This document shows, piece by piece, positions 4,636-62,978 of a stretch of 64,000 bases of DNA; position 1 is the stretch's first letter, and every line of letters starts with the position of its first letter. The position numbers and the translations under genes are program-made. The DNA is from Kiloniellales bacterium (GTDB lineage: Bacteria; Pseudomonadota; Alphaproteobacteria; Kiloniellales; JAKSBE01). The notes below the pieces were generated by a model. That model searched no databases. It was not told the origin of the DNA and saw only the letters and a program-made list of their open reading frames with translations. The stretch spans positions 1,406 through 65,405 of the forward strand of contig JANQGU010000036.1 of NCBI GenBank assembly GCA_028282935.1. Direction: 5' to 3'.

Positions 4636-5730
4636 ATGGAAGCCGAGATCGTCGGTCGACGCGGCAAGGGGCTCTCCGAGACGGGAGCCCTCGGGGCCGG
4701 CGTCTTGGTGGCGCTGCTTCTCGGCCTGTCGGGCTGCGTGACCATCCCGTCGAACACCGGGTTGCCGCTGCAGTTCGAGGCCGCCGAGCGGCCGGCGGCG
4801 GCCAGCGACTATCCCAATTGGCCCGGCCCGCCGGAACTCGTGGAGACCCGCCTGCGGGAGAGCCTGAGGTCCGCGGACTTCGAGCTGCTGGAGTCCCGGC
4901 GCACGGCCGAGGGCAGCTCCGGCGCGCGCACGGTCAGCCTCTCCTTCCCCCAAGCCGCCGAGGGCCCCAAGGAGGTCCGCTTCAAGTGGAAGCAGATGCC
5001 GCGCGGCACCCTGGACCAGCACAACGACAGCCCGCGCCGGCAGATCGCGGCCTACGAGCTGCAGAAGCTGTTCCTGGACCCCGAGGACTACGTGGTGCCC
5101 ACGGCCCTGGCCTACTGCGTCCCGGTCTCGAAGATCGAGGACGCCTCGCGCGCGCCGCTCCGGCCGACGCTGCCGGACTCCTCCTGCGTGCTGGGCCTGG
5201 TGCAGGTCTGGCTGAACGAGGTGACCTCCAGCGACAGCCTCTACGAGGAGGCGCGCTTCGTCTCGGAGCCGACCTACGCCTACTACCTGGCCAACTTCAA
5301 CCTCTTCACCTATCTCAGCGACTTCGCCGATCCCAAGAAGAGCAACTTCCTGGTCTCGAAGGAGCCGGAGCGGCGCCAGGTCTTCTGCTTCGACAACGAC
5401 ATCGCCTTCGAGGAGCTTTTCCGCCTGCCCTTCGTCGACCGCTGGAACGTGATCTTCGTGCCGGCCCTGCGCCGCGACTCGATCGAGCGGCTGCGCCGGC
5501 TGCGCCGGGCGGACCTCGATCGCCTGGGCGTCGTCGCCCAGCTCGAGAAGGACGCGCGCGGTCTCTACCTCTCGGTGCCGCCGAGCGGGAACCTGTCGCC
5601 CAACGAGGGCGTGCGCATCGGCGGCCGGACCGTCCAGCTCGGCCTGGCCAGGTTCGAGATCGAGGCGGTCTGGCGGCGCATTCGGACCCTTCTCGCGCGG
5701 GTCGACGCCGGCGAGATCCCGCTCTTCTAA
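4636..5730 (+). CDS. Hypothetical lipoprotein with protein-kinase-like catalytic-loop motifs
   Basis: 364 aa; lipobox LLGLSG|C (Cys34); D232-P-K-K-S-N237-F-L-V and F-D253-N-D255 resemble HRDLKPENxLV / DFG; GC3-rich codons. Confidence 0.7.
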   Translation: MEAEIVGRRGKGLSETGALGAGVLVALLLGLSGCVTIPSNTGLPLQFEAAERPAAASDYPNWPGPPELVETRLRESLRSADFELLESRRTAEGSSGARTVSLSFPQAAEGPKEVRFKWKQMPRGTLDQHNDSPRRQIAAYELQKLFLDPEDYVVPTALAYCVPVSKIEDASRAPLRPTLPDSSCVLGLVQVWLNEVTSSDSLYEEARFVSEPTYAYYLANFNLFTYLSDFADPKKSNFLVSKEPERRQVFCFDNDIAFEELFRLPFVDRWNVIFVPALRRDSIERLRRLRRADLDRLGVVAQLEKDARGLYLSVPPSGNLSPNEGVRIGGRTVQLGLARFEIEAVWRRIRTLLARVDAGEIPLF

Positions 5731-21370: not shown

Positions 21371-22371
21371 TCGAGACGCTGACCCCGCTGGAGCTGAAGC
21401 TGCTCGACCGCTGGCAGCGGGACTTCCCGCTGGAGTCCCGGCCTTTCGCGGTCCTGGCTTCGGCCCTCGAGGTGGAGGAGGCGACCGTGCTGGAGCGGCT
21501 CGCCGCCTTCCGGCGGCAGGGCCTGATCTCGCGGGTCGGTGCTGTGGTGCGGCCCAACACCGCGGGCGCCAGCACCCTGGCGGCCATGGCCGTGCCGCCG
21601 ACGCGCCTGGAGGCGGTGGCGGATCGGGTGAACGCCGAGCCCGCGGTCAACCACAACTACGAGCGCGAACACGAGCTCAATTTGTGGTTCGTCGTGGCCG
21701 CGGCCGACCCCGCGGCCGTGACGGAGACGCTGGCAGGCATCTCCCGGGACAGCGGCCTCGAGGTGCTCGACCTGCCTTTGGAGCGGGCCTATCACATCGA
21801 TCTGGGCTTCGGACTGGAGGGGAGGGGCCGGCCGAGGCGCAGCGGCGATGCGGGCCCCGAGGCGCCGGTCGTCTCGCCCGATGCGGCGGACCGCCGCCTG
21901 CTCTCGGCCATCGAGGATGGCCTGCCCCAGGTGCCGCGTCCCTTCGCCGAGGTCGCCCAGAGGCTCGGCTGGTCCGAGGCCGAGGTGCTCGACCGTCTGC
22001 GCCGGCTCTGCGCCGGCGGCGTCATTTCCCGCTTCGGCCTGGTGGTGCGGCACCGCAGCCTCGGCTACCGGGCCAACGCCATGGCGGTCTGGGACGTTCC
22101 CGACGACGGCGTCGACAGGGTCGCCGCGGACTTCGCCGGCCAGCCCTTCGTCACCCTCTGCTATCGCCGGCCGCGGCGGCGGCCGCGCTGGCCCTACAAC
22201 CTCTTCTGCATGATCCATGGCCGCGACCGGCTCACTGTGGAGGCGCAGATCGGCCGGCTGAACGAGGTCGCCGGGACACGGGAGCTGCCGCAGGCGGTCC
22301 TCTTCAGCCGCCGCTGCTTCAAGCAGCGTGGCGCCCGCTTCTCCGGCGAGACCAAGGAGGAAGCGGCATGA
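21367..22371 (+). CDS. nirD: Fused NirD-NirL siroheme decarboxylase subunits (tandem AsnC/Lrp-like modules)
   Basis: 334 aa with two repeated modules (LLDRWQRDFPL..., LLSAIEDGLPQ...); ATGA overlap with nirF. Confidence 0.88.
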   Translation: MIETLTPLELKLLDRWQRDFPLESRPFAVLASALEVEEATVLERLAAFRRQGLISRVGAVVRPNTAGASTLAAMAVPPTRLEAVADRVNAEPAVNHNYEREHELNLWFVVAAADPAAVTETLAGISRDSGLEVLDLPLERAYHIDLGFGLEGRGRPRRSGDAGPEAPVVSPDAADRRLLSAIEDGLPQVPRPFAEVAQRLGWSEAEVLDRLRRLCAGGVISRFGLVVRHRSLGYRANAMAVWDVPDDGVDRVAADFAGQPFVTLCYRRPRRRPRWPYNLFCMIHGRDRLTVEAQIGRLNEVAGTRELPQAVLFSRRCFKQRGARFSGETKEEAA

Positions 22372-22823
22372 GCGTGGAGCTCGACGGCCTGGACCGCCGG
22401 ATCGTCAACGGCCTGCAGGGCGGCTTCCCGCTCAGCGAGCGGCCCTATGCGGAGGCGGCCGAGGCCTTCGGCATCGCGGAGGACGAGCTGATCGCGCGTA
22501 TCGACCGGCTGGTCGAGACCGGCGCGCTGAGCCGCTTCGCGCCCCTGTTCAACGCCGAGCGCCTGGGCGGCGCGGTCTGCCTCTGCGGTATGGCCGTGCC
22601 GGCGGCGCGCTTCGATGCGGTCGCGGAGCAGGTCAACGCCCATTCCGAGGTCGCGCACAACTACGCCCGCGAGCACGCGCTCAGCATGTGGTTCGTGCTG
22701 GCGAGCGAGCGCCCCGAGCGCATCGAGGAGGTCGCGGCGGCGATCGAGGCCGAGACCGGCCTGACCGTCTACCGCCTGCCCAAGCTGGACGAGTACTACA
22801 TCGGCTTGAAGGTGGAGGTGTGA
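22368..22823 (+). CDS. nirG: NirG siroheme decarboxylase subunit
   Basis: 151 aa; ATGA overlap with nirDL; AsnC/Lrp-like, paralogous to neighbours. Confidence 0.87.
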   Translation: MSVELDGLDRRIVNGLQGGFPLSERPYAEAAEAFGIAEDELIARIDRLVETGALSRFAPLFNAERLGGAVCLCGMAVPAARFDAVAEQVNAHSEVAHNYAREHALSMWFVLASERPERIEEVAAAIEAETGLTVYRLPKLDEYYIGLKVEV

Positions 22824-22826
22824 GCC

Positions 22827-23303
22827 GTGCTGGATGACCTGGACCGCCGCATCATCGCCGCCACCCAGACGGGCCTGCCGCTGACGCCGCGGCCCTATCA
22901 CGCCCTGGCCGAGACGCTGGGCGTCCCGGCGCAGGAGGTGATGGACCGCCTGCGCGGGATGCAGGCGCGCGGCGTGGTGCGCCGCATTGGCGCGGTGCCC
23001 AACCATTACGCCCTGGGCTGGAGCGCCAACGGCATGAGCGTCTGGGACGTCGCCGACGCCCGGGTCGCGGACCTGGGGCCGCAGGTTGGCGCCCTGGACT
23101 TCGTCAGCCACTGCTATCGCCGGCCGCGGCACCTGCCGCTCTGGCCCTACAACCTCTTCGCCATGGTCCACGGCCGCGGCCGCGACGAGGTGGAAGATAA
23201 GGTGGCGCGGATCGCGGCCCTGCTGGGCCCGGCGTCGCGCGCTCACGAGGTGCTCTACAGCACCCGCATCCTGAAGAAGACCGGTCTGCGGATCGCGGCC
23301 TGA
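22827..23303 (+). CDS. nirH: NirH siroheme decarboxylase subunit
   Basis: 158 aa from GTG 22827; paralogous to NirD/L/G modules ([11 protein letters not shown]). Confidence 0.87.
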
Positions 23304-27442: not shown

Positions 27443-27470
27443 GCCGCGCCGCCGCCGCGCGCGGAGGGTC

Positions 27471-28046
27471 TCAAGAGCCGAAAAGGACGAAACGGCGGTT
27501 GGTCGACTGGGTCGGCCGGTAGTTGTTGGGATAGAGTTCGGCGAAGGCCTCGATCTGGACCGGCGAGACTTCGACCGGCCGATCGAAGACCACCCAGCTC
27601 ACGATTTCCGAGCAGGGCGGCGTGGTGAGCGAGCCGGCGTAGCGGAAGATGGCGCTGTCCTCGGGAAGCAGCGTCGCCAGATCGATCGCAGCTTCCACCT
27701 GCCGGGCACCCTTGTCTTGCGGGGCGTTGTCCAGGATCGTCTTCAGCGCGTCGTTGGCCTGGCCGGGCACGAGAAAGGCGCCGAGAACCAAAAGGTCGCC
27801 CTGTGCCGACTTGTGGACGAAGTGGGCCTCCATCGGCAGCCGCGCGCCGTCGAGGGTGTGCTCGCTCTCGTGGTGGAAGTGAAGCTGCAGCAGGTCGTAG
27901 CGCTTGCCGTCGAAGGTCGTGTAGCTGCCGGTCGGCGCATTGGCCTGGATGGTGTGGCCGTTGTTGACGACCTCGGGCGCCAGCGCCTGCCAGGAAATCT
28001 CGATCTCCTCCGGTTCGGCGGCGTGCGTGCGCTTCAGATCTATCGG
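27471..28046 (-). pseudogene. Alpha-carbonic anhydrase remnant lacking start codon, signal peptide and ~55 N-terminal codons
   Basis: Frame open from ...PIDLKRTHAAEPEEIEISWQ... to stop 27471 and ~89% identical to the intact copy over the last 120 aa; no ATG/GTG/TTG upstream of Met at 27833; 5' region deleted relative to copy 2. Confidence 0.65.
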
Positions 28047-28109
28047 AGCCGGCTTGGACCATCGTCTCGCCGCAGGAGCTAAGTGTGGCGCGGAGGCGGG
28101 GACAACGGG

Positions 28110-28175
28110 CTTAAGCTGCTGTTAGCCTGGCGTTCAGGCAGCGTTAGTCCGCTGTTAATCTGGCGTTAAGGTGCC
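28110..28175 (+). promoter_or_regulatory. Six phased 11-bp GTTA direct repeats (copy 1)
   Basis: cttaagctgct gttagcctggc gttcaggcagc gttagtccgct gttaatctggc gttaaggtgcc; exact 11-bp register. Confidence 0.6.
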
Positions 28176-28335
28176 GACGGGCAAAAGCCCGAGCCTGATC
28201 CGGCGGGAGACCTCGGCGGCGGGCGGGGCCGCCGCTGGACCGCGCTGGACTCCCGGCTGTCGGCGCCGTGGTACTATGGCGCCTGCGGGCCGCGGTGGTA
28301 GCGTCGTCAGGCTGTAGCAAGGGGAGGGTGGCAAG

Positions 28336-29367
28336 GTGAAGGTCTGCATCTACGGCGCCGGCGCGATCGGCGGATATCTCGCGGTGGAGCTAGCGCAGGT
28401 GTCGGGGGTCGAGGTCTCGGCCATCGCCCGGGGCGGGCATCTGGCCGCGATGCGCGAGAAGGGCCTGAAGCTGGTGATCGGCGAGGAGACCCGCGTCGCC
28501 CAGGTGCAGGCCAGCGACGACCCGGCCGATCTCGGTCCCCAGGACTTCGTGATCATCGCCCTCAAGGCCCATCAGGCCTGGGAGGTCGCCGAGCAGATGG
28601 CGCCGCTGCTGGGACCCGAAACCGCCGTGGTGACCTGCCAGAACGGCGTGCCCTGGTGGTACTTCCACGGCCTGGACGGCCAGTACGCCGACCTGCGCCT
28701 GGCCAGCGTCGACCCGGACGACCGGCAGTGGAACGCCATCGGGCCGGAGCGGGCGATCGGCTGCGTCGTCTACCCGGCGACCGAGATCGTCGAGCCGGGC
28801 GTGATCAAGCACACCTACGGCAACAAGTTCGCCCTCGGCGAGCCGGACGGCAGCACCTCGGAGCGCTGCCAGCGGCTGTCCGAGGCGCTGCTGGCCAGCG
28901 GCCTCAAGGCGCCGATCCTGCCGCACATCCGCAACGAGATCTGGCTCAAGCTCTGGGGCAACCTCTGCTTCAACCCGATCTCGGCCCTGACCCGCGAGAC
29001 CCTGGACGTGGTCGCCACCGACCCGGGCACCCGGGCCCTGTCACGGGAGATGATGCTGGAGGCGCAGCGCATCGCCGTGCGCCTGGGCGTGCACTTCCGG
29101 GTCGACGTCGAGCGGCGGATCAACGGCGCGGCCAAGGTCGGCGCCCACCGCACCTCGATGCTGCAGGACCTGGAGCGCGGCCGGCCGCTGGAGATCGACG
29201 CCCTCCTGACCGTGGTCCAGGAGATGGGCCGCATGGTCGACGTCGAGACGCCGCACATCGACAGCGTTCTGGCCCTGGTCCAGCAGCTCGGCCGCCGGCT
29301 GTCGCTCTATCCGACCTTCCCCGAGCACGGCCGCGAGGACCAGGACGCCGAGGTCGCGGTGGACTGA
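28336..29367 (+). CDS. Ketopantoate reductase (PanE/ApbA) family oxidoreductase
   Basis: 343 aa from GTG 28336; Rossmann GAGAIGG; C-terminal ApbA-like RTSMLQDLERGRPLEID. Confidence 0.8.
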   Translation: MKVCIYGAGAIGGYLAVELAQVSGVEVSAIARGGHLAAMREKGLKLVIGEETRVAQVQASDDPADLGPQDFVIIALKAHQAWEVAEQMAPLLGPETAVVTCQNGVPWWYFHGLDGQYADLRLASVDPDDRQWNAIGPERAIGCVVYPATEIVEPGVIKHTYGNKFALGEPDGSTSERCQRLSEALLASGLKAPILPHIRNEIWLKLWGNLCFNPISALTRETLDVVATDPGTRALSREMMLEAQRIAVRLGVHFRVDVERRINGAAKVGAHRTSMLQDLERGRPLEIDALLTVVQEMGRMVDVETPHIDSVLALVQQLGRRLSLYPTFPEHGREDQDAEVAVD

Positions 29368-34076: not shown

Positions 34077-34799
34077 TCAGGAGCCGCCGGCCGTCGACTG
34101 ATCGAGCAGGATCAGGTCGAAGGTGCCGTTGGCCAGCGAGCCGACCGCGAAGGCCGTGTAGGCGACCTGCTCGTCCAGGCGGACGTCGACCTTGGCGACC
34201 GACCTGAAGCTGGTGTCCGGCGAGATCCGCACCTGATAGTCGCCCGCGGCGGCGTCGCTGGGGAAGCTCTGCTCGCCGTTGGCCAGCCCGTCGATCCGGA
34301 TGCTGTCGCGGAAGGAGCCGCGCTTCGGCCGCGCCTGGACGTCGACCGGAGGAGCGACCGCGGCGTGGACCACGGCGAGGCGGGTCTCGTGCGCGCCCAG
34401 GGTGGAGACGTTGTTGGTCACCTTGGTCAGGGTCGGCGAGCCGCCCTGGTTGAGGTGGGCGATGATGCTGGCGTTCTCGAAGACCGCGAGCTCGACACGG
34501 CCGGAGACGGCGAGCAGGCCGCCGCAGGGGTTGCCCTCGTCAGCGAGCGAGACCGCGATCTCGTAGCTGCCGGCCGGCAGCGGCACGTTGCGCGCGATGT
34601 CCCGGAAGGAGACGCCGGGCAGGGCGCAGCCGCCGTTGACCGAGATGTCGACCGTCAGGGCCTCGTCCAGGCCGAGGTCGCCGCCGTTGATGCCGTGGAT
34701 CACCTGGACGCTGGCGTCCTGGGCCTGCGCGGGCTGCGCCCAGGCCTGCAGGACCAGGAAACCGGCCGCCGCCATTGCGAGGGTTGAAAGAGTCTTCAT
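34077..34799 (-). CDS. Secreted DUF4397 domain protein
   Basis: 240 aa; signal peptide ...AWAQPAQA|QD; beta-rich repeats (VQVIHGINGG..., LAVVHAAVAPP...). Confidence 0.7.
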   Translation of the reverse strand: MKTLSTLAMAAAGFLVLQAWAQPAQAQDASVQVIHGINGGDLGLDEALTVDISVNGGCALPGVSFRDIARNVPLPAGSYEIAVSLADEGNPCGGLLAVSGRVELAVFENASIIAHLNQGGSPTLTKVTNNVSTLGAHETRLAVVHAAVAPPVDVQARPKRGSFRDSIRIDGLANGEQSFPSDAAAGDYQVRISPDTSFRSVAKVDVRLDEQVAYTAFAVGSLANGTFDLILLDQSTAGGS

Positions 34800-34983
34800 G
34801 ACGTACCTCCCATAGGTTATGGATGAACCTTCCTACGCTGGCCTGCGCCGTCCGGATGTCCGGGCTTCGTGACGGTCGTGCGAAGCTTGGATGACATCTC
34901 CATCGGCCCGCGGGCGGGGCGACGTGACGATTGGCAGCGGCGCAGAGGCGGACGACGGCGCCGCGATCCTCCAGGAGGCCGCT

Positions 34984-35679
34984 ATGACCCCGTTTCAGGA
35001 TCTCTTCGACTTGGCCGCCGAGCGCAAGGGCGGGGCCGCGGCGCTAGAGGCGCTTCTGCCCCTGCCCGAAAGCGCGGCGGCCCTGGCCCGGATTCCCGAC
35101 GACCGCTGGCTGGCCGGCATGACCAAGCGGATCTTCCAGTCCGGCTTCGTCTGGCGGGTGATCGAGAACAAGTGGCCGGGCTTCGAGGCCGCCTTCGAGG
35201 GCTTCGAGCCGCGGCGCTGGCAGATGATGTCCGACGAGGACCTGGACCGCCTGGTCAGGGACGAGCGCATCGTGCGCAACGCCAAGAAGATCCTGACCGT
35301 GCGCGACAACGCGCGGCTGCTTTGCGAGCTGGCGGCGGAGCGGGGCTCGGCGGCCAAGGTCTTCGCCGACTGGCCGAGCGAGGACTACGTCGGCCTGCTG
35401 GACCTCCTGAAGACTCGCGGCAGCCGCCTGGGCGGCTCCACCGCGCAGTACTTCCTGCGCTTCATGGGCAAGGATTCCTTCATGACCGCGGGCGACGTCG
35501 CCAAGGCCCTGGTCCGCGAGGGCGTGGTCGACAAGCCGCCGAGCGGCAAGGGCGCGCTCAAGAAGGTGCAGGCGGCCTTCAACGGCTGGATGGAGGAGAG
35601 CGGCCGGCCGCTCACCCAGATCAGCCGCGTGCTGGCCTTTACGGTGCCGGTCGAAGGCGAAGAGGACGCGGAGGATTGA
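34984..35679 (+). CDS. tag: DNA-3-methyladenine glycosylase I (Tag)-like protein
   Basis: 231 aa from ATG 34984 (AGGAGG SD); Tag-like core MTKRIFQSGFVWRVIENKWPGFEAAF...RIVRNAKKI. Confidence 0.65.
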   Translation: MTPFQDLFDLAAERKGGAAALEALLPLPESAAALARIPDDRWLAGMTKRIFQSGFVWRVIENKWPGFEAAFEGFEPRRWQMMSDEDLDRLVRDERIVRNAKKILTVRDNARLLCELAAERGSAAKVFADWPSEDYVGLLDLLKTRGSRLGGSTAQYFLRFMGKDSFMTAGDVAKALVREGVVDKPPSGKGALKKVQAAFNGWMEESGRPLTQISRVLAFTVPVEGEEDAED

Positions 35680-35815
35680 GAGGCGGGCCGGATCACCAGT
35701 CCGGTCGTCGGAGGCGCGGAAGGCAGGCGCCCCCCTTGACGCCTGCCTTCCTACGTCGCGACGAGCCGAGGGGTGTCAGGCGGCCTGTCGCAACATCCAC
35801 CGCTCGTCGAAGGTC

Positions 35816-36568
35816 TCAAAACCCGAAAAGGATGAAACGGCGGTTGGTCGATTGAGTCGGCCGGAAGTTGTTGGGGTAGAGCTCGGCGAAGGCTTCGATC
35901 TGGACCGGCGAGACCTCGACCGGCCGGTCGTAGACCACCCAGCTTACGATCTCGGAACAGGGCGGTGTGGTCAGCGAGCCGGCGTAACGGAAGATGGCGC
36001 TGTCGTCGGGAACCAGCGTCTCCAGATCGATCGCGGCTTCCACCTTTCGGGTGCCCTTGCTTTGCGGGGCGTTGTCCAGGATCGTCCTCAGCGCGCCGTT
36101 CGCTTGGCCGGGCACGAGAAAGACGCCGAGGACCAGGAGGTCGCCCTGTGCCGACTTGTGCACGAAGTGGGCTTCCATCGGCAGCTGCTTGCCGTCCAGG
36201 GTGTGCTCGCTCTTGTGGTGGAAGTGCAGCTGCAGCAGGTCGTAGCGCTTGCCGTCGAAGGTCGTGTAGCTGCCGGCCGGGGCGTTGGCCTGGATGGTGT
36301 GGCCGTTGTTGACGACCTCGGGCCCGAAGGCCTGCCAGGAAATCTCGATCTCCTCCGGTTCGGCGGCGTGGGTCCGCTGAAGGTCGATCGGAGACTGCTC
36401 ACGGCCGCTGCCGCAGGCCGCGAACTCGGACCCGATCTCGGACCAGTGCTCCGGCCCCTTCGGCCCCTCGTAGGACCATTCCCTGTCCTCGGCGGCGTAG
36501 CCGGCAGTCGCCGCGCCGAAGACGAAGGCGGCGACGGCTGTCCCGACGGCATGATCTCTGAGTTTCAT
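35816..36568 (-). CDS. Periplasmic alpha-class carbonic anhydrase
   Basis: 250 aa from ATG 36568 (AGGAG SD); signal peptide MKLRDHAVGTAVAAFVFGAATAGYA; zinc-His context LHFHHKSEH...EAHFVH; SLTTPPCSE. Confidence 0.9.
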   Translation of the reverse strand: MKLRDHAVGTAVAAFVFGAATAGYAAEDREWSYEGPKGPEHWSEIGSEFAACGSGREQSPIDLQRTHAAEPEEIEISWQAFGPEVVNNGHTIQANAPAGSYTTFDGKRYDLLQLHFHHKSEHTLDGKQLPMEAHFVHKSAQGDLLVLGVFLVPGQANGALRTILDNAPQSKGTRKVEAAIDLETLVPDDSAIFRYAGSLTTPPCSEIVSWVVYDRPVEVSPVQIEAFAELYPNNFRPTQSTNRRFILFGF

Positions 36569-36717
36569 CTCGTTCCACTCCTGGTAACTCTTGTCTCGGT
36601 TCTCGGGTTGCGTTTCTTGTCGAAAGTGGCGGATCCTCCCCCGTGGCCCCGGAAGACCTGCTTGGAGCATCGCCTCGCCAATGGAGCTAAGAGGGGCGCG
36701 AAAGCAGAGACAACGGA

Positions 36718-36783
36718 CTTAAGCCGCTGTTAGCCTGCCGTTCAGCGGCCGTTAGTCCGCTGTTAATCTGGCGTTAATGTGCC
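36718..36783 (+). promoter_or_regulatory. Six phased 11-bp GTTA direct repeats (copy 2) between alpha-CA and the histidine-kinase operon
   Basis: cttaagccgct gttagcctgcc gttcagcggcc gttagtccgct gttaatctggc gttaatgtgcc; array ends 32 nt before HK ATG; TATAGA at 36801-36806. Confidence 0.6.
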
Positions 36784-36814
36784 GTGGCGGGGACCGCTGC
36801 TATAGATTGCAACC

Positions 36815-38401
36815 ATGTTCAAGACCAAGCTCATGCTGGCCGTCGCCGGCCTTCTGACCTTCGTCTTCCTCCTGGCGGGCCTGCTCTACTGGAGCGTGAA
36901 CCAGACCAACGATCAGGTGTCCCGGATCCAGCTGGCGCACGCCGAGCTCGAGAGCTATCTCTCGCTTTCGGCCGAGACCTACCGGCTGTTCAAGCAGTTC
37001 CGCCGGATCATGCTCGGCGACGGCAGCGCGGACATCGATGTCGTCGCCGAGGATCGAGCGCGCCTCGAAGACCGCATTCGCCAGCTGCGGGCGCAGATCG
37101 CCGAGGAGACCGCCTTCGTGTCCTCGGGCCGGGAACGGCAGGTCGAGCGGATCGAGTTGCGGCGCCTGGAGGCGCTGACCGGCGAGATTCAGCAGGCGCT
37201 CGACGATGTCGGGCTTGCGCAGCGGCTGCTTCGGGCCGGTCGGCGCGAGGAGGCCGTGATCCTCCTGTCCGAGGTCCTGGAGGTGGGCATCGACCAAAGG
37301 GTCCGCGGCTTGATCGACACGGCCGTGGCCGACGAACGCAGGCAGGTCGCCGCGGCCGAGGAGAGGGTGCGCCGTCTGACCCGTCAGCTGGAGACGGTCG
37401 CGGAGATCGCGGCCGCGCTGGCCGCCGCCTTCGCGCTGCTCGGGGCGACCCTGCTGCTGCGACGCCTCGGCCAGCCGATCGATCAGTTGACCAAGGGCAC
37501 GCAGAAGCTCGCCGCCGGCGAGCTCTCGCATCGGATCGAGGCCAGCGGACGCGACGAGTTCGCGCAACTGGCCCGGCGTTTCAACAGCATGGCAGCCGAC
37601 CTGGAGCGCCAGCGCAGGCAGCTGGAAGACGCGCGCAACACCCTGGAAGCCAAGGTCGAGGAGCGGACCGACGAACTCCGCCAGGCCAACGAGGAGCTGC
37701 AGCAGACCGATCGCATTCGCCAGCGCTTCTTCGCCGAGATCAGCCACGAGCTGCGCACGCCCCTGACGGTCCTGCGCGGTGAGGGCGAGGTCTCGCTTCT
37801 GGGGAGGGGGAGACCGGCCGAGAGCTACAAGGCCTCGATCGCCCGTATGGTCGATCAGACGGAGCACCTCTCGCGTCTGGTCGACGACCTCTTTCTCATG
37901 GCCCGCTCCAGCGCCGGCGTCGCCGACCTGAAGCGCAAGGAGGTCGACGTCTCCGACCTGCTGAACAAGACCTGCGACGACATGGCGGTGGTCGCCGAGT
38001 CGGCGGGGCTGCAGCTCTCGGTGCGGGGCACGGAGGCGCCGACCAAGGTCATGGGCGATCAGGGCCGTCTGCGCCAGCTCCTCTTCATCCTGCTGGACAA
38101 CGCGCTGCGCTATGGACGCCCGGGCGACCGCATCGACGCGGATCTGACCGCCGGCGGTACTGCCGCCGTGATCCGGGTTCGGGACAGCGGGCCCGGCATC
38201 GCGCAAGAGGACCTGGATCGAGTCTTCGACCGCTTCTACCGCGGCACGGCGGCCCGCAAGGCCTCGCCCGACGGCTCCGGCCTGGGCTTGCCGCTGGCCA
38301 AGTCGATCGTCGATGCCCACGGCGGCAAGATCGGGCTGGACAGCAAGGGCGGACAAGGCACTCTGGTGACGGTAACCCTTCCGATTGCGGCGGCGGCGTG
38401 A
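36815..38401 (+). CDS. Sensor histidine kinase (2 TM, HAMP, HisKA, HATPase)
   Basis: 528 aa; H-box ISHELRTPLT; G1 DSGPGI; G2 GSGLGLPLAK. Confidence 0.9.
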   Translation: MFKTKLMLAVAGLLTFVFLLAGLLYWSVNQTNDQVSRIQLAHAELESYLSLSAETYRLFKQFRRIMLGDGSADIDVVAEDRARLEDRIRQLRAQIAEETAFVSSGRERQVERIELRRLEALTGEIQQALDDVGLAQRLLRAGRREEAVILLSEVLEVGIDQRVRGLIDTAVADERRQVAAAEERVRRLTRQLETVAEIAAALAAAFALLGATLLLRRLGQPIDQLTKGTQKLAAGELSHRIEASGRDEFAQLARRFNSMAADLERQRRQLEDARNTLEAKVEERTDELRQANEELQQTDRIRQRFFAEISHELRTPLTVLRGEGEVSLLGRGRPAESYKASIARMVDQTEHLSRLVDDLFLMARSSAGVADLKRKEVDVSDLLNKTCDDMAVVAESAGLQLSVRGTEAPTKVMGDQGRLRQLLFILLDNALRYGRPGDRIDADLTAGGTAAVIRVRDSGPGIAQEDLDRVFDRFYRGTAARKASPDGSGLGLPLAKSIVDAHGGKIGLDSKGGQGTLVTVTLPIAAAA

Positions 38402-39078
38402 GCATTCTCCTGATCGAAGACGACGAGCGAATCGTCGAGTTTCTGAAGCGTGGCCTCGGCGAGCAGGGGCACGCCGTCGAGGTCGCGATGACGGGGTCGG
38501 AGGGACTGGAGAGGGGCCGCCAAGAGGCCTACTCCCTGATCATCCTCGACGTCATGCTCCCGGAGCTCGACGGCCACGAGGTCTGCCAGGAACTGCGCCT
38601 GGCCGGGATCCGCACGCCGATCCTGATGCTGACTGCGATGGACGGCCTGGACGACGTGATCACGGGCCTGCGCCTGGGCGCGGACGACTACATGACCAAG
38701 CCCTTCTCCTTTCGCGAGCTATTGGCCCGCATCGAGGCGCTGCTGCGCCGTGGCGGCGACTACGAGGCGAAGCCCTCGGTCCTCGAGGTCCAGGACATCT
38801 CCTTTGACCGCGACTCCCTCGAAGTGTCGCGCGCCGGGCGGGCGATCGAGCTGACCTCCAAGGAACTGGCGCTGCTGGAGCTTCTGCTGACCAGTGCCGG
38901 CAAGGTGGTCAGCCGGGCCCAGATCCTGGAGACCGTCTGGGGCAGCAGCAACGACCCCCTGACCAACATCGTCGAGGTCTACATCCGGCGCCTGCGCGCC
39001 AAGATCGACGACGGCAGCGACAATCCCCTCATCACCACCATCCGCGGCCGCGGTTACCGGCTGGAGGCCAAGGCCTAA
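38398..39078 (+). CDS. OmpR/PhoB-family response regulator
   Basis: 226 aa; GTGA overlap with kinase; receiver (LIILDVMLP) plus winged helix (VEVYIRRLRAKI...RGRGYRL). Confidence 0.92.
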   Translation: MSILLIEDDERIVEFLKRGLGEQGHAVEVAMTGSEGLERGRQEAYSLIILDVMLPELDGHEVCQELRLAGIRTPILMLTAMDGLDDVITGLRLGADDYMTKPFSFRELLARIEALLRRGGDYEAKPSVLEVQDISFDRDSLEVSRAGRAIELTSKELALLELLLTSAGKVVSRAQILETVWGSSNDPLTNIVEVYIRRLRAKIDDGSDNPLITTIRGRGYRLEAKA

Positions 39079-62933: not shown

Positions 62934-62978
62934 GCCTAGTGGTTGTGGGCCTAGTGGTTATGGGCCTAGTGCTTGTGG
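62934..62978. repeat. 15-bp tandem repeat x3 (gcctagtgSttRtgg) in the mlaA-mlaC spacer
   Basis: gcctagtggttgtgg / gcctagtggttatgg / gcctagtgcttgtgg read directly; each unit contains CTAG. Confidence 0.9.

Follow-up and report, generated by a model that had tools for sequence, protein, structure and literature searches.

A phased array of 11-bp direct repeats is the probable operator of an adjacent OmpR/PhoB-family two-component system

An array of six phased 11-bp units lies immediately upstream of a kinase-regulator operon in the 64,000-nucleotide stretch of DNA analyzed here (referred to below as the window). Based on its co-occurrence with this two-component system and on its geometry, which together provide the link between protein and DNA, the array probably serves as operator for the OmpR/PhoB-family response regulator encoded next to it (38398-39078). 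The original prediction had proposed the same role, with autoregulation of the operon, control of the carbonic anhydrase gene and, as a possibility, an efflux module wired into the circuit. Operator function and autoregulation are well supported by co-occurrence, fixed geometry and a footprint-like pattern of conservation; the efflux connection is not. The features discussed are listed in Table 1.

Table 1. Coordinates of the array, its second copy and the associated genes and promoter elements in the window.
Feature	Coordinates	Strand	Basis or remark
Duplicated segment A, counterpart of 35812-36784	27467..28176	.	Alignment; extends from about 4 nt beyond the CA stop codon through the final array base
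CA copy A, without start codon, signal peptide and N-terminus	27471..28040	-	Alignment, translation
Second array (copy A) of six units; identity to copy B, 59/66	28110..28175	+	Comparison with copy B
Secreted alpha-carbonic anhydrase (CA)	35816..36568	-	Pfam Carb_anhydrase, 4e-42; signal peptide in translation
Candidate CA promoter: TTGTCT (36713-36708), 17 nt, TTAGCT (36690-36685)	36685..36713	-	Read from the sequence; putative
Lineage-specific extension, two units, CTTAAG and GTTAGC	36718..36739	+	CA-proximal side
Core operator, four 11-bp units, GTTCAG, GTTAGT, GTTAAT and GTTAAT, with 5-nt spacers (putative)	36740..36783	+	The kinase promoter has its -35 position within the last unit
TATAGA, -10-like hexamer for the kinase-regulator operon	36801..36806	+	Separated by 17 nt from the array and by 8 nt from the ATG
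Sensor histidine kinase (HAMP, HisKA, HATPase_c)	36815..38401	+	Pfam
OmpR/PhoB-family response regulator (Response_reg and Trans_reg_C)	38398..39078	+	Pfam; proposed to bind the array

On the forward strand, positions 36718-36783 read CTTAAGCCGCT GTTAGCCTGCC GTTCAGCGGCC GTTAGTCCGCT GTTAATCTGGC GTTAATGTGCC, i.e., six units with a period of exactly 11 bp. Four of the six start with GTTA, one with CTTA and one with GTTC, giving (C/G)TT(A/C) overall. The half-site is a 6-bp hexamer, GTTMRT, followed by a 5-bp variable spacer, and the half-sites form a tandem direct repeat. Both this array (copy B) and a second one at 28110-28175 (copy A) had been described in the original prediction, and both proved real. 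The motif GTTA-N7-GTTA has four matches in the 64-kb window, all within the two arrays, compared with an expected number of 0.01 (100 dinucleotide shuffles). A scan for three or more phased (G/C)TT(A/C) units likewise gave no window matches beyond the two arrays, and in the loci L001-L007 its matches were found solely upstream of the kinase. No further array sites rose above the shuffle background in a PWM scan of the 64-kb window, and a regulon is not demonstrable by this route.

The flanking genes agree with their description in the original prediction. The CA gene is the divergent neighbor of the kinase gene; it starts at 36568 behind a GGAG Shine-Dalgarno sequence and encodes 250 aa, as in the L001 gene call. 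Genes for an NMT1/SsuA-type ABC transporter are located downstream of the regulator, and genes for PanE, an RND adaptor and an RND pump are located upstream of the CA/kinase region. In the window a DUF4397 gene and an adenine-glycosylase gene (34170-35767) separate the RND pump from CA. Both are missing in L011 (2950-2976), the MAG labelled Kiloniellales, indicating that the efflux-to-CA region is variable among close relatives.

The first part of the window (1-26062) contains cbb genes (class II aldolase, RuBisCO large subunit and a CbbX-like AAA protein), nor genes (NorB-like, NorQ and a VWA NorD-like protein) and two genes of the cytochrome cd1 nitrite-reductase type (nirS). The host is apparently an autotrophic denitrifier and a relative of a MAG labelled Kiloniellales. 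Among species-representative genomes the closest public genome, found by sensor-domain alignment, is a MAG with this label (90% identity over the N-terminal 280 residues of the kinase). Two pairs of direct repeats with 78-84% identity, about 1 kb apart, were observed in the nir-region genes (21586-21698 / 22590-22702 and 22137-22229 / 23090-23182) and probably represent paralogous genes arranged in tandem. At 62934-62978, a 15-bp unit, GCCTAGTGGTTGTGG, is repeated in tandem, in three copies with a 90% match.

Orthologous loci were gathered from contigs with relatives of the kinase, from a scan of species-representative genomes (sensor-domain alignment) and from a metagenome scan with a four-unit DNA pattern. 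Full-length relatives of the kinase range from 92% down to about 42% identity. The last four units of the array recur upstream of kinase orthologues that share 49-92% identity; these come from metagenome contigs and from MAGs with the labels Kiloniellales, Inquilinaceae and Alphaproteobacteria. Conservation upstream of orthologous two-component systems, a check put forward in the original prediction, was thus observed. The four core hexamers occur in the same order and register in L001, L011, L002/L013, L004/L012, L005 and L097, and are degenerate in L006. The close relatives L001 and L011 carry all six units and an adjoining CA gene. Kinase orthologues at 55-58% identity (L002/L013, labelled Inquilinaceae; L004/L012; L005; L097) are found without a CA gene. 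Their upstream neighbor is Dak2 or an unnamed gene, and hemerythrin and TRAP genes follow downstream; the units GTTCAG-GTTAGT-GTTAAT-GTTCAT are present at 11 bp immediately upstream of the kinase. In L006 (49% identity), ATTC/ATTA/GTTC/GTTC units are seen once the kinase start has been moved. In the public gene call (5001-5037) this kinase starts 36 nt too early; alignment with the orthologues and the 31-nt rule described below place the start at 5037. Most array-bearing kinase loci lack a CA gene. Because the array is kept in unrelated neighborhoods without CA, it tracks the two-component system and not the CA gene.

The metagenome scan (40-bit four-unit pattern) returned eight loci, two of which are kinase orthologues; the rest are unrelated (AT-rich repeats and a GTTAATGCCCC run). 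The GTTAATGCCCC-type 11-bp units were observed in L096 (4385-4472; also in L094), with at least four near-identical units and seven in phase, and with no two-component system nearby. After the run in L096 come TTGACT-N17-TAAGTA and then a dapD-like gene; slippage, or binding of another regulator, may account for this run. A search of the plasmid collection with the CA/kinase/regulator region as query gave generic kinase/regulator similarity only, at 66-70% identity (Ralstonia, Paracoccus).

Eight loci were compared for promoter geometry: the window, L001, L011, L002, L004, L005, L097 and L006. In all eight the distance from the end of the array to the kinase ATG is exactly 31 nt (17 nt, a hexamer and 8 nt). 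For the window, the distances stated in the original prediction are correct, with 149 nt between the array and the CA start and TATAGA at 36801-36806. A hexamer of the TAnAnT type occupies the identical position in seven of the loci (TATAGA, TACACT, TAGAGT, TACATT and TACAGT); the version in the window lacks the final T of the -10 consensus. The sole exception is L006, in which the hexamer TACGTC is displaced by 2 nt and the 31-nt distance from array to ATG is kept. No Shine-Dalgarno sequence was found in the 8 nt between the hexamer and the kinase ATG in the loci compared, and the kinase N-terminus, MFKTKL, is kept from residue 1 in orthologues. Judging from these sequences, the kinase ATG (36815) is probably the transcription start region of a leaderless mRNA. 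The earlier suggestion of a near-leaderless kinase mRNA is supported by the conserved TAnAnT hexamer 8 nt before the ATG together with the missing Shine-Dalgarno sequence.

None of the lineages has a -35-like hexamer where the -35 element would be expected. The sequences found there (TGTGCC, TGGAGT, TGGTGT, TGGTCA and TATGTC) never resemble TTGACA; these bases are the tail of the last array unit. A consensus scan detected no complete sigma-70 promoter at array B, the -35 element being absent, and consensus promoter and terminator scans of both arrays and of the gap between the regulator and the ABC gene gave nothing informative. Since both a -35 hexamer and a complete promoter are absent, the layout points to an activator-dependent promoter in which the regulator site takes the place of the -35 element. 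The adjacent regulator could also bind as a repressor, with negative autoregulation by promoter occlusion, given that the array overlaps the -35 region and that ArcA uses the same architecture chiefly for repression. We consider this unlikely, because no lineage has a -35-like hexamer or a complete promoter, and activator-dependent promoters, those with pho boxes among them, typically lack the -35.

In the reading that we prefer, phosphorylated dimers of the regulator would bind head-to-tail, with two dimers on the core (units 3-6) and one more on units 1-2. At the -35 position, the monomer nearest the promoter would bring RNA polymerase to TATAGA, in the manner of PhoB at pho boxes, and transcription would start at the kinase ATG or 1 nt before it, yielding a leaderless mRNA. 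The expected outcome would be positive autoregulation of the kinase-regulator operon, and transcription might extend into the NMT1/SsuA-type ABC transporter genes that follow.

Units 1 and 2 are found only in copies A and B of the window and in L001 and L011, where CA is the divergent neighbor; they are absent in L002, L004, L005 and L097. On the opposite strand, the -35-like TTGTCT of the candidate CA promoter starts 4 nt from unit 1, and TTGTC/TTGCC plus TTAGCT are kept in copy A and in the close relatives L001 and L011. By bringing the array within 4 nt of this element, units 1 and 2 may allow the bound regulator to drive CA as well. The candidate promoter was not picked up by the consensus scan, and the half-sites of the array point away from the direction of CA transcription. 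Because the promoter is weak (TTAGCT) and conserved solely among close relatives, we only infer CA control; on the sequence evidence, regulation of the CA gene through the array appears slightly favored.

The presence of copy A is explained by a larger duplication. Segments 27467-28176 and 35812-36784 are homologous with 84-88% identity. The original prediction had reported a duplicated array; a duplication did occur, and it involves a segment of CA plus upstream sequence rather than an independent copy of the array. Since the duplication spans both CA and its upstream region, the array upstream of PanE is the end of a CA gene and not an independent insertion. The CA gene in copy A has suffered a 263-bp deletion (copy B coordinates ~36397-36659), with a GAC(N)TGCT microhomology at the junction; comparison of 27471-28062 with 35816-36670 shows that the Shine-Dalgarno sequence was removed along with the start codon, signal peptide and N-terminus. 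Compared with copy B, its dN/dS is 0.17 and its dS 0.31, and the remaining frame is open. From dS and dN/dS, CA copy A was a working gene through most of its history, and from the open frame and the dN/dS value its inactivation looks recent. Copy A may have been a former equivalent promoter of this second CA gene, since disabled.

It has been proposed that copy A puts the PanE, MFP and RND efflux genes under the same regulator. Array A faces PanE and its hexamers are almost intact; as predicted, it lies 160 bp upstream of PanE, whose GTG start is at 28336. RND genes also occur 2-5 kb from the two-component system in L001 and L011, and in L010 a paralogous system is divergent to an RND adaptor/pump pair. 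However, array A is the end of the duplicated CA-plus-upstream segment and not an insertion. Homology stops at the end of the array, so that the -10/ATG module is not included and GCCTGA is present at the equivalent position; no promoter is predicted in the 160 nt to the PanE start, and the sole hexamer change in copy A falls in unit 6, which is promoter-proximal. The RND pump itself resembles multidrug-type models, all under cut-off. Control of the efflux genes through copy A thus appears improbable, and the suggestion that the duplicate may have wired the efflux module into the circuit is unsupported: what remains is the upstream end of a start-less CA remnant, without the -10/ATG geometry on its plus side. 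A heavy-metal reading of the RND pump was rejected, as only multidrug-type models match, under cut-off. In L010 (2646-4000), the paralogous kinase/regulator pair has a related GTTAAT/TGTAAT motif and is divergent to the RND adaptor and pump, a hint that RND efflux and this two-component family may be connected.

For the kinase-regulator pair, a role as sensor of inorganic carbon (CO2/bicarbonate) or a related signal, co-inducing CA and the NMT1/SsuA-type importer through the operator, is conceivable and, in our judgment, quite unlikely; the Pfam family of the importer includes the bicarbonate- and nitrate-binding proteins CmpA/NrtA. If this were true, the locus would represent a small carbon-concentrating module beside cbb genes in an autotrophic denitrifier, and the circuit would have grown by added half-sites on an autoregulatory operator and by duplication of an operator-plus-CA cassette.

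The regulator is a full-length winged-helix protein of the OmpR family, with full-length PDB matches to M. tuberculosis PhoP, RegX3, BasR and KdpE. Its best NCBIfam match is CopR/CusR/CzcR (TIGR01387, 242.8 bits, under the curated cut-off of 279.2), and HprR scores 217 bits; ArcA is absent from the best 25 of 84 NCBIfam families. The kinase reaches 183.4 against the kinase family of CopR/CusR/CzcR systems (cut-off 292.55), in a match that spans the kinase core only, and its sensor domain matched no named family. The regulator is orthologous to none of ArcA, PhoB and OmpR. The locus combines features expected of an OmpR/PhoB-family operator: short direct repeats at 11 bp, within the usual spacing of 10-11 bp, a co-occurring winged-helix regulator, a half-site footprint and a fixed core-promoter position.

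The recognition helix, TN(I/V)(V/I)(E/D)VYIRRLR(A/S)KID, is common to every array-bearing lineage. Three paralogous systems with the same helix, L010, L014 and L016, have GTTAATCTGTnTGTAATGTGAATTC; in addition, a TATATT hexamer, which reads TTATAT in L010, precedes the ATG by 6-7 nt. In the Methyloceanibacter/Methyloligella clade the helix reads YIARLR(R/K)K instead of YIRRLR(A/S)K, and the array is absent. A strongly conserved AAAATGCAGTATAGGT element is found about 100-125 nt upstream of the kinase start in the Methyloceanibacter clade (L017-L048, L007-L009), and phased ATGAAA-type repeats were observed further upstream in a subset of it (L007, L017, L018, L028, L029, L037 and L047). This sister clade has a different operator/promoter design, with its promoter about 110 nt upstream. 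The correlation between helix and array is supportive and not decisive, because it reflects a single evolutionary split and counts as one event.

The array could be a real operator that serves another regulator, either CtrA, whose box is an arrangement of half-sites, TTAA-N7-TTAAC, or a different OmpR-family protein. Half-sites of the OmpR family are short and alike between regulators, the ArcA half-site TGTTA being nearly identical, and units 5-6 in the window, TTAATCTGGCGTTAA, do contain TTAA-N7-TTAA. At the equivalent positions, however, L002, L004, L005, L097 and L006 have TTAA-N7-TTCA or TTCA-N7-TTCA. The array follows the kinase-regulator pair into different neighborhoods with base-exact geometry and is absent where the recognition helix has changed, and in the metagenome pattern scan it appeared in this form only beside kinase orthologues. 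A different owner of the site is decidedly unlikely on these grounds. The CtrA box was rejected, since both TTAA half-sites are present only at units 5-6 of the window lineage and not in the orthologues.

The pattern of substitutions within the array also favors binding of a protein. Across six lineages, the majority fraction is 0.88-1.0 at unit positions 1-6 and 0.50-0.67 at positions 7-11, with G1 and T2T3 of the hexamer, rather than TTAA, best conserved. Because positions 1-6 are conserved and positions 7-11 drift, the array resembles a protein-binding footprint rather than an RNA. The arrays of copies A and B show seven differences, 1/36 in the hexamers and 6/30 in the spacers (Fisher p = 0.04); the single hexamer change makes unit 6 GTTAAG in copy A, and the spacers look neutral. 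Had the 36 hexamer sites diverged like the synonymous sites of the linked CA genes (pS = 0.255), at most one change would be seen with a probability of 3e-4, and from this comparison the hexamers have been under selection in both copies. As the hexamers of copy A were kept without an adjacent two-component system, a role at the CA promoter is supported indirectly.

These data bear on two further explanations. The array could be a structured RNA, in the 5' leader of the CA mRNA or as a small RNA, and a 7-bp stem (GCCGCTG...CAGCGGC) is possible across units 1-3. Rfam gave no match in the whole window, and the fold z-scores (-1.4 for the plus strand and -0.6 for the CA-sense leader) are no better than those of shuffles; L001 (CAGCCGC) does not preserve the stem, the periodicity of conservation is that of the hexamers and not of paired positions, and the array is kept where the CA gene is absent, all of which makes an RNA highly improbable. 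A non-functional tandem repeat left by replication slippage or as a duplication scar, to which the duplication boundary at the array end and the slippage-like GTTAATGCCCC run on an unrelated contig might point, has next to no probability and is refuted by the pattern of conservation, as the units are not identical, hexamers are kept and spacers differ across orthologues at 49-92% identity without duplication, and purifying selection acts on the hexamers when synonymous sites are taken as the reference.

Assigned to the adjacent regulator, the array provides a concrete predicted operator for an uncharacterized two-component family of MAGs labelled Kiloniellales or Inquilinaceae and of related Alphaproteobacteria. 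The operator rule (GTTMRT, 11-bp period, four to six units, 31 nt before a predicted leaderless start) may be used for regulon prediction in complete genomes. The locus also offers a clear example of a putatively autoregulatory operator that gained two half-sites where a new divergent gene, CA, became its neighbor, and of an operator-plus-gene cassette duplicated as a unit. The element is of an ordinary kind in bacterial control; it would not surprise a specialist and leaves the understanding of OmpR-family regulators unchanged.

Among characterized systems, the CopR/CusR/CzcR heavy-metal systems comprise the nearest named regulator subfamily, and RND efflux genes are nearby in the window; however, neither regulator nor kinase reaches the curated scores, and the RND pump is not of the CusA/CzcA type. 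By sequence and spacing, the closest characterized operators are ArcA boxes. These consist of TGTTA direct repeats with 11-bp centre-to-centre spacing and two to five repeats per site; the classical site is GTTAATTAAATGTTA, and many sites have three to five phased repeats (PMC3798270, PMC4173790). The half-sites described here, (T/C)GTTA(A/G)T, have the same spacing, and TGTTA-type repeats of the ArcA consensus are found in cTGTTAG, cCGTTAG, cTGTTAA and gCGTTAA (consensus PMC4173790). Membership in the ArcA regulon was rejected: the regulator is not an ArcA orthologue, its best match being the CopR/CusR subfamily, under cut-off. ArcA is mostly a repressor with sites over complete promoters, whereas activation is suggested here, with six units and GC-rich spacers.

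With respect to the candidate CA promoter, the six-half-site layout is closest to the OmpR sites F1-F2-F3 at ompF. There, three dimer sites with six half-sites of the GTTAC/GAAAC type span about 60 bp and end beside the -35 element. The OmpR period is about 10 bp, compared with 11 bp in the present array, whose half-sites face away from CA, and the CA promoter is putative. In promoter geometry the closest system is the pho box of PhoB, a case of class II activation. Pho boxes are direct repeats with an 11-bp period that replace the -35 element at a fixed distance upstream of the -10 element, and the regulator operon is positively autoregulated. The PhoB half-site is CTGTCAT, compared with GTTMRT for the array described here, which is distinguished further by four to six half-sites, a predicted leaderless transcript and a candidate second target in the divergent direction.
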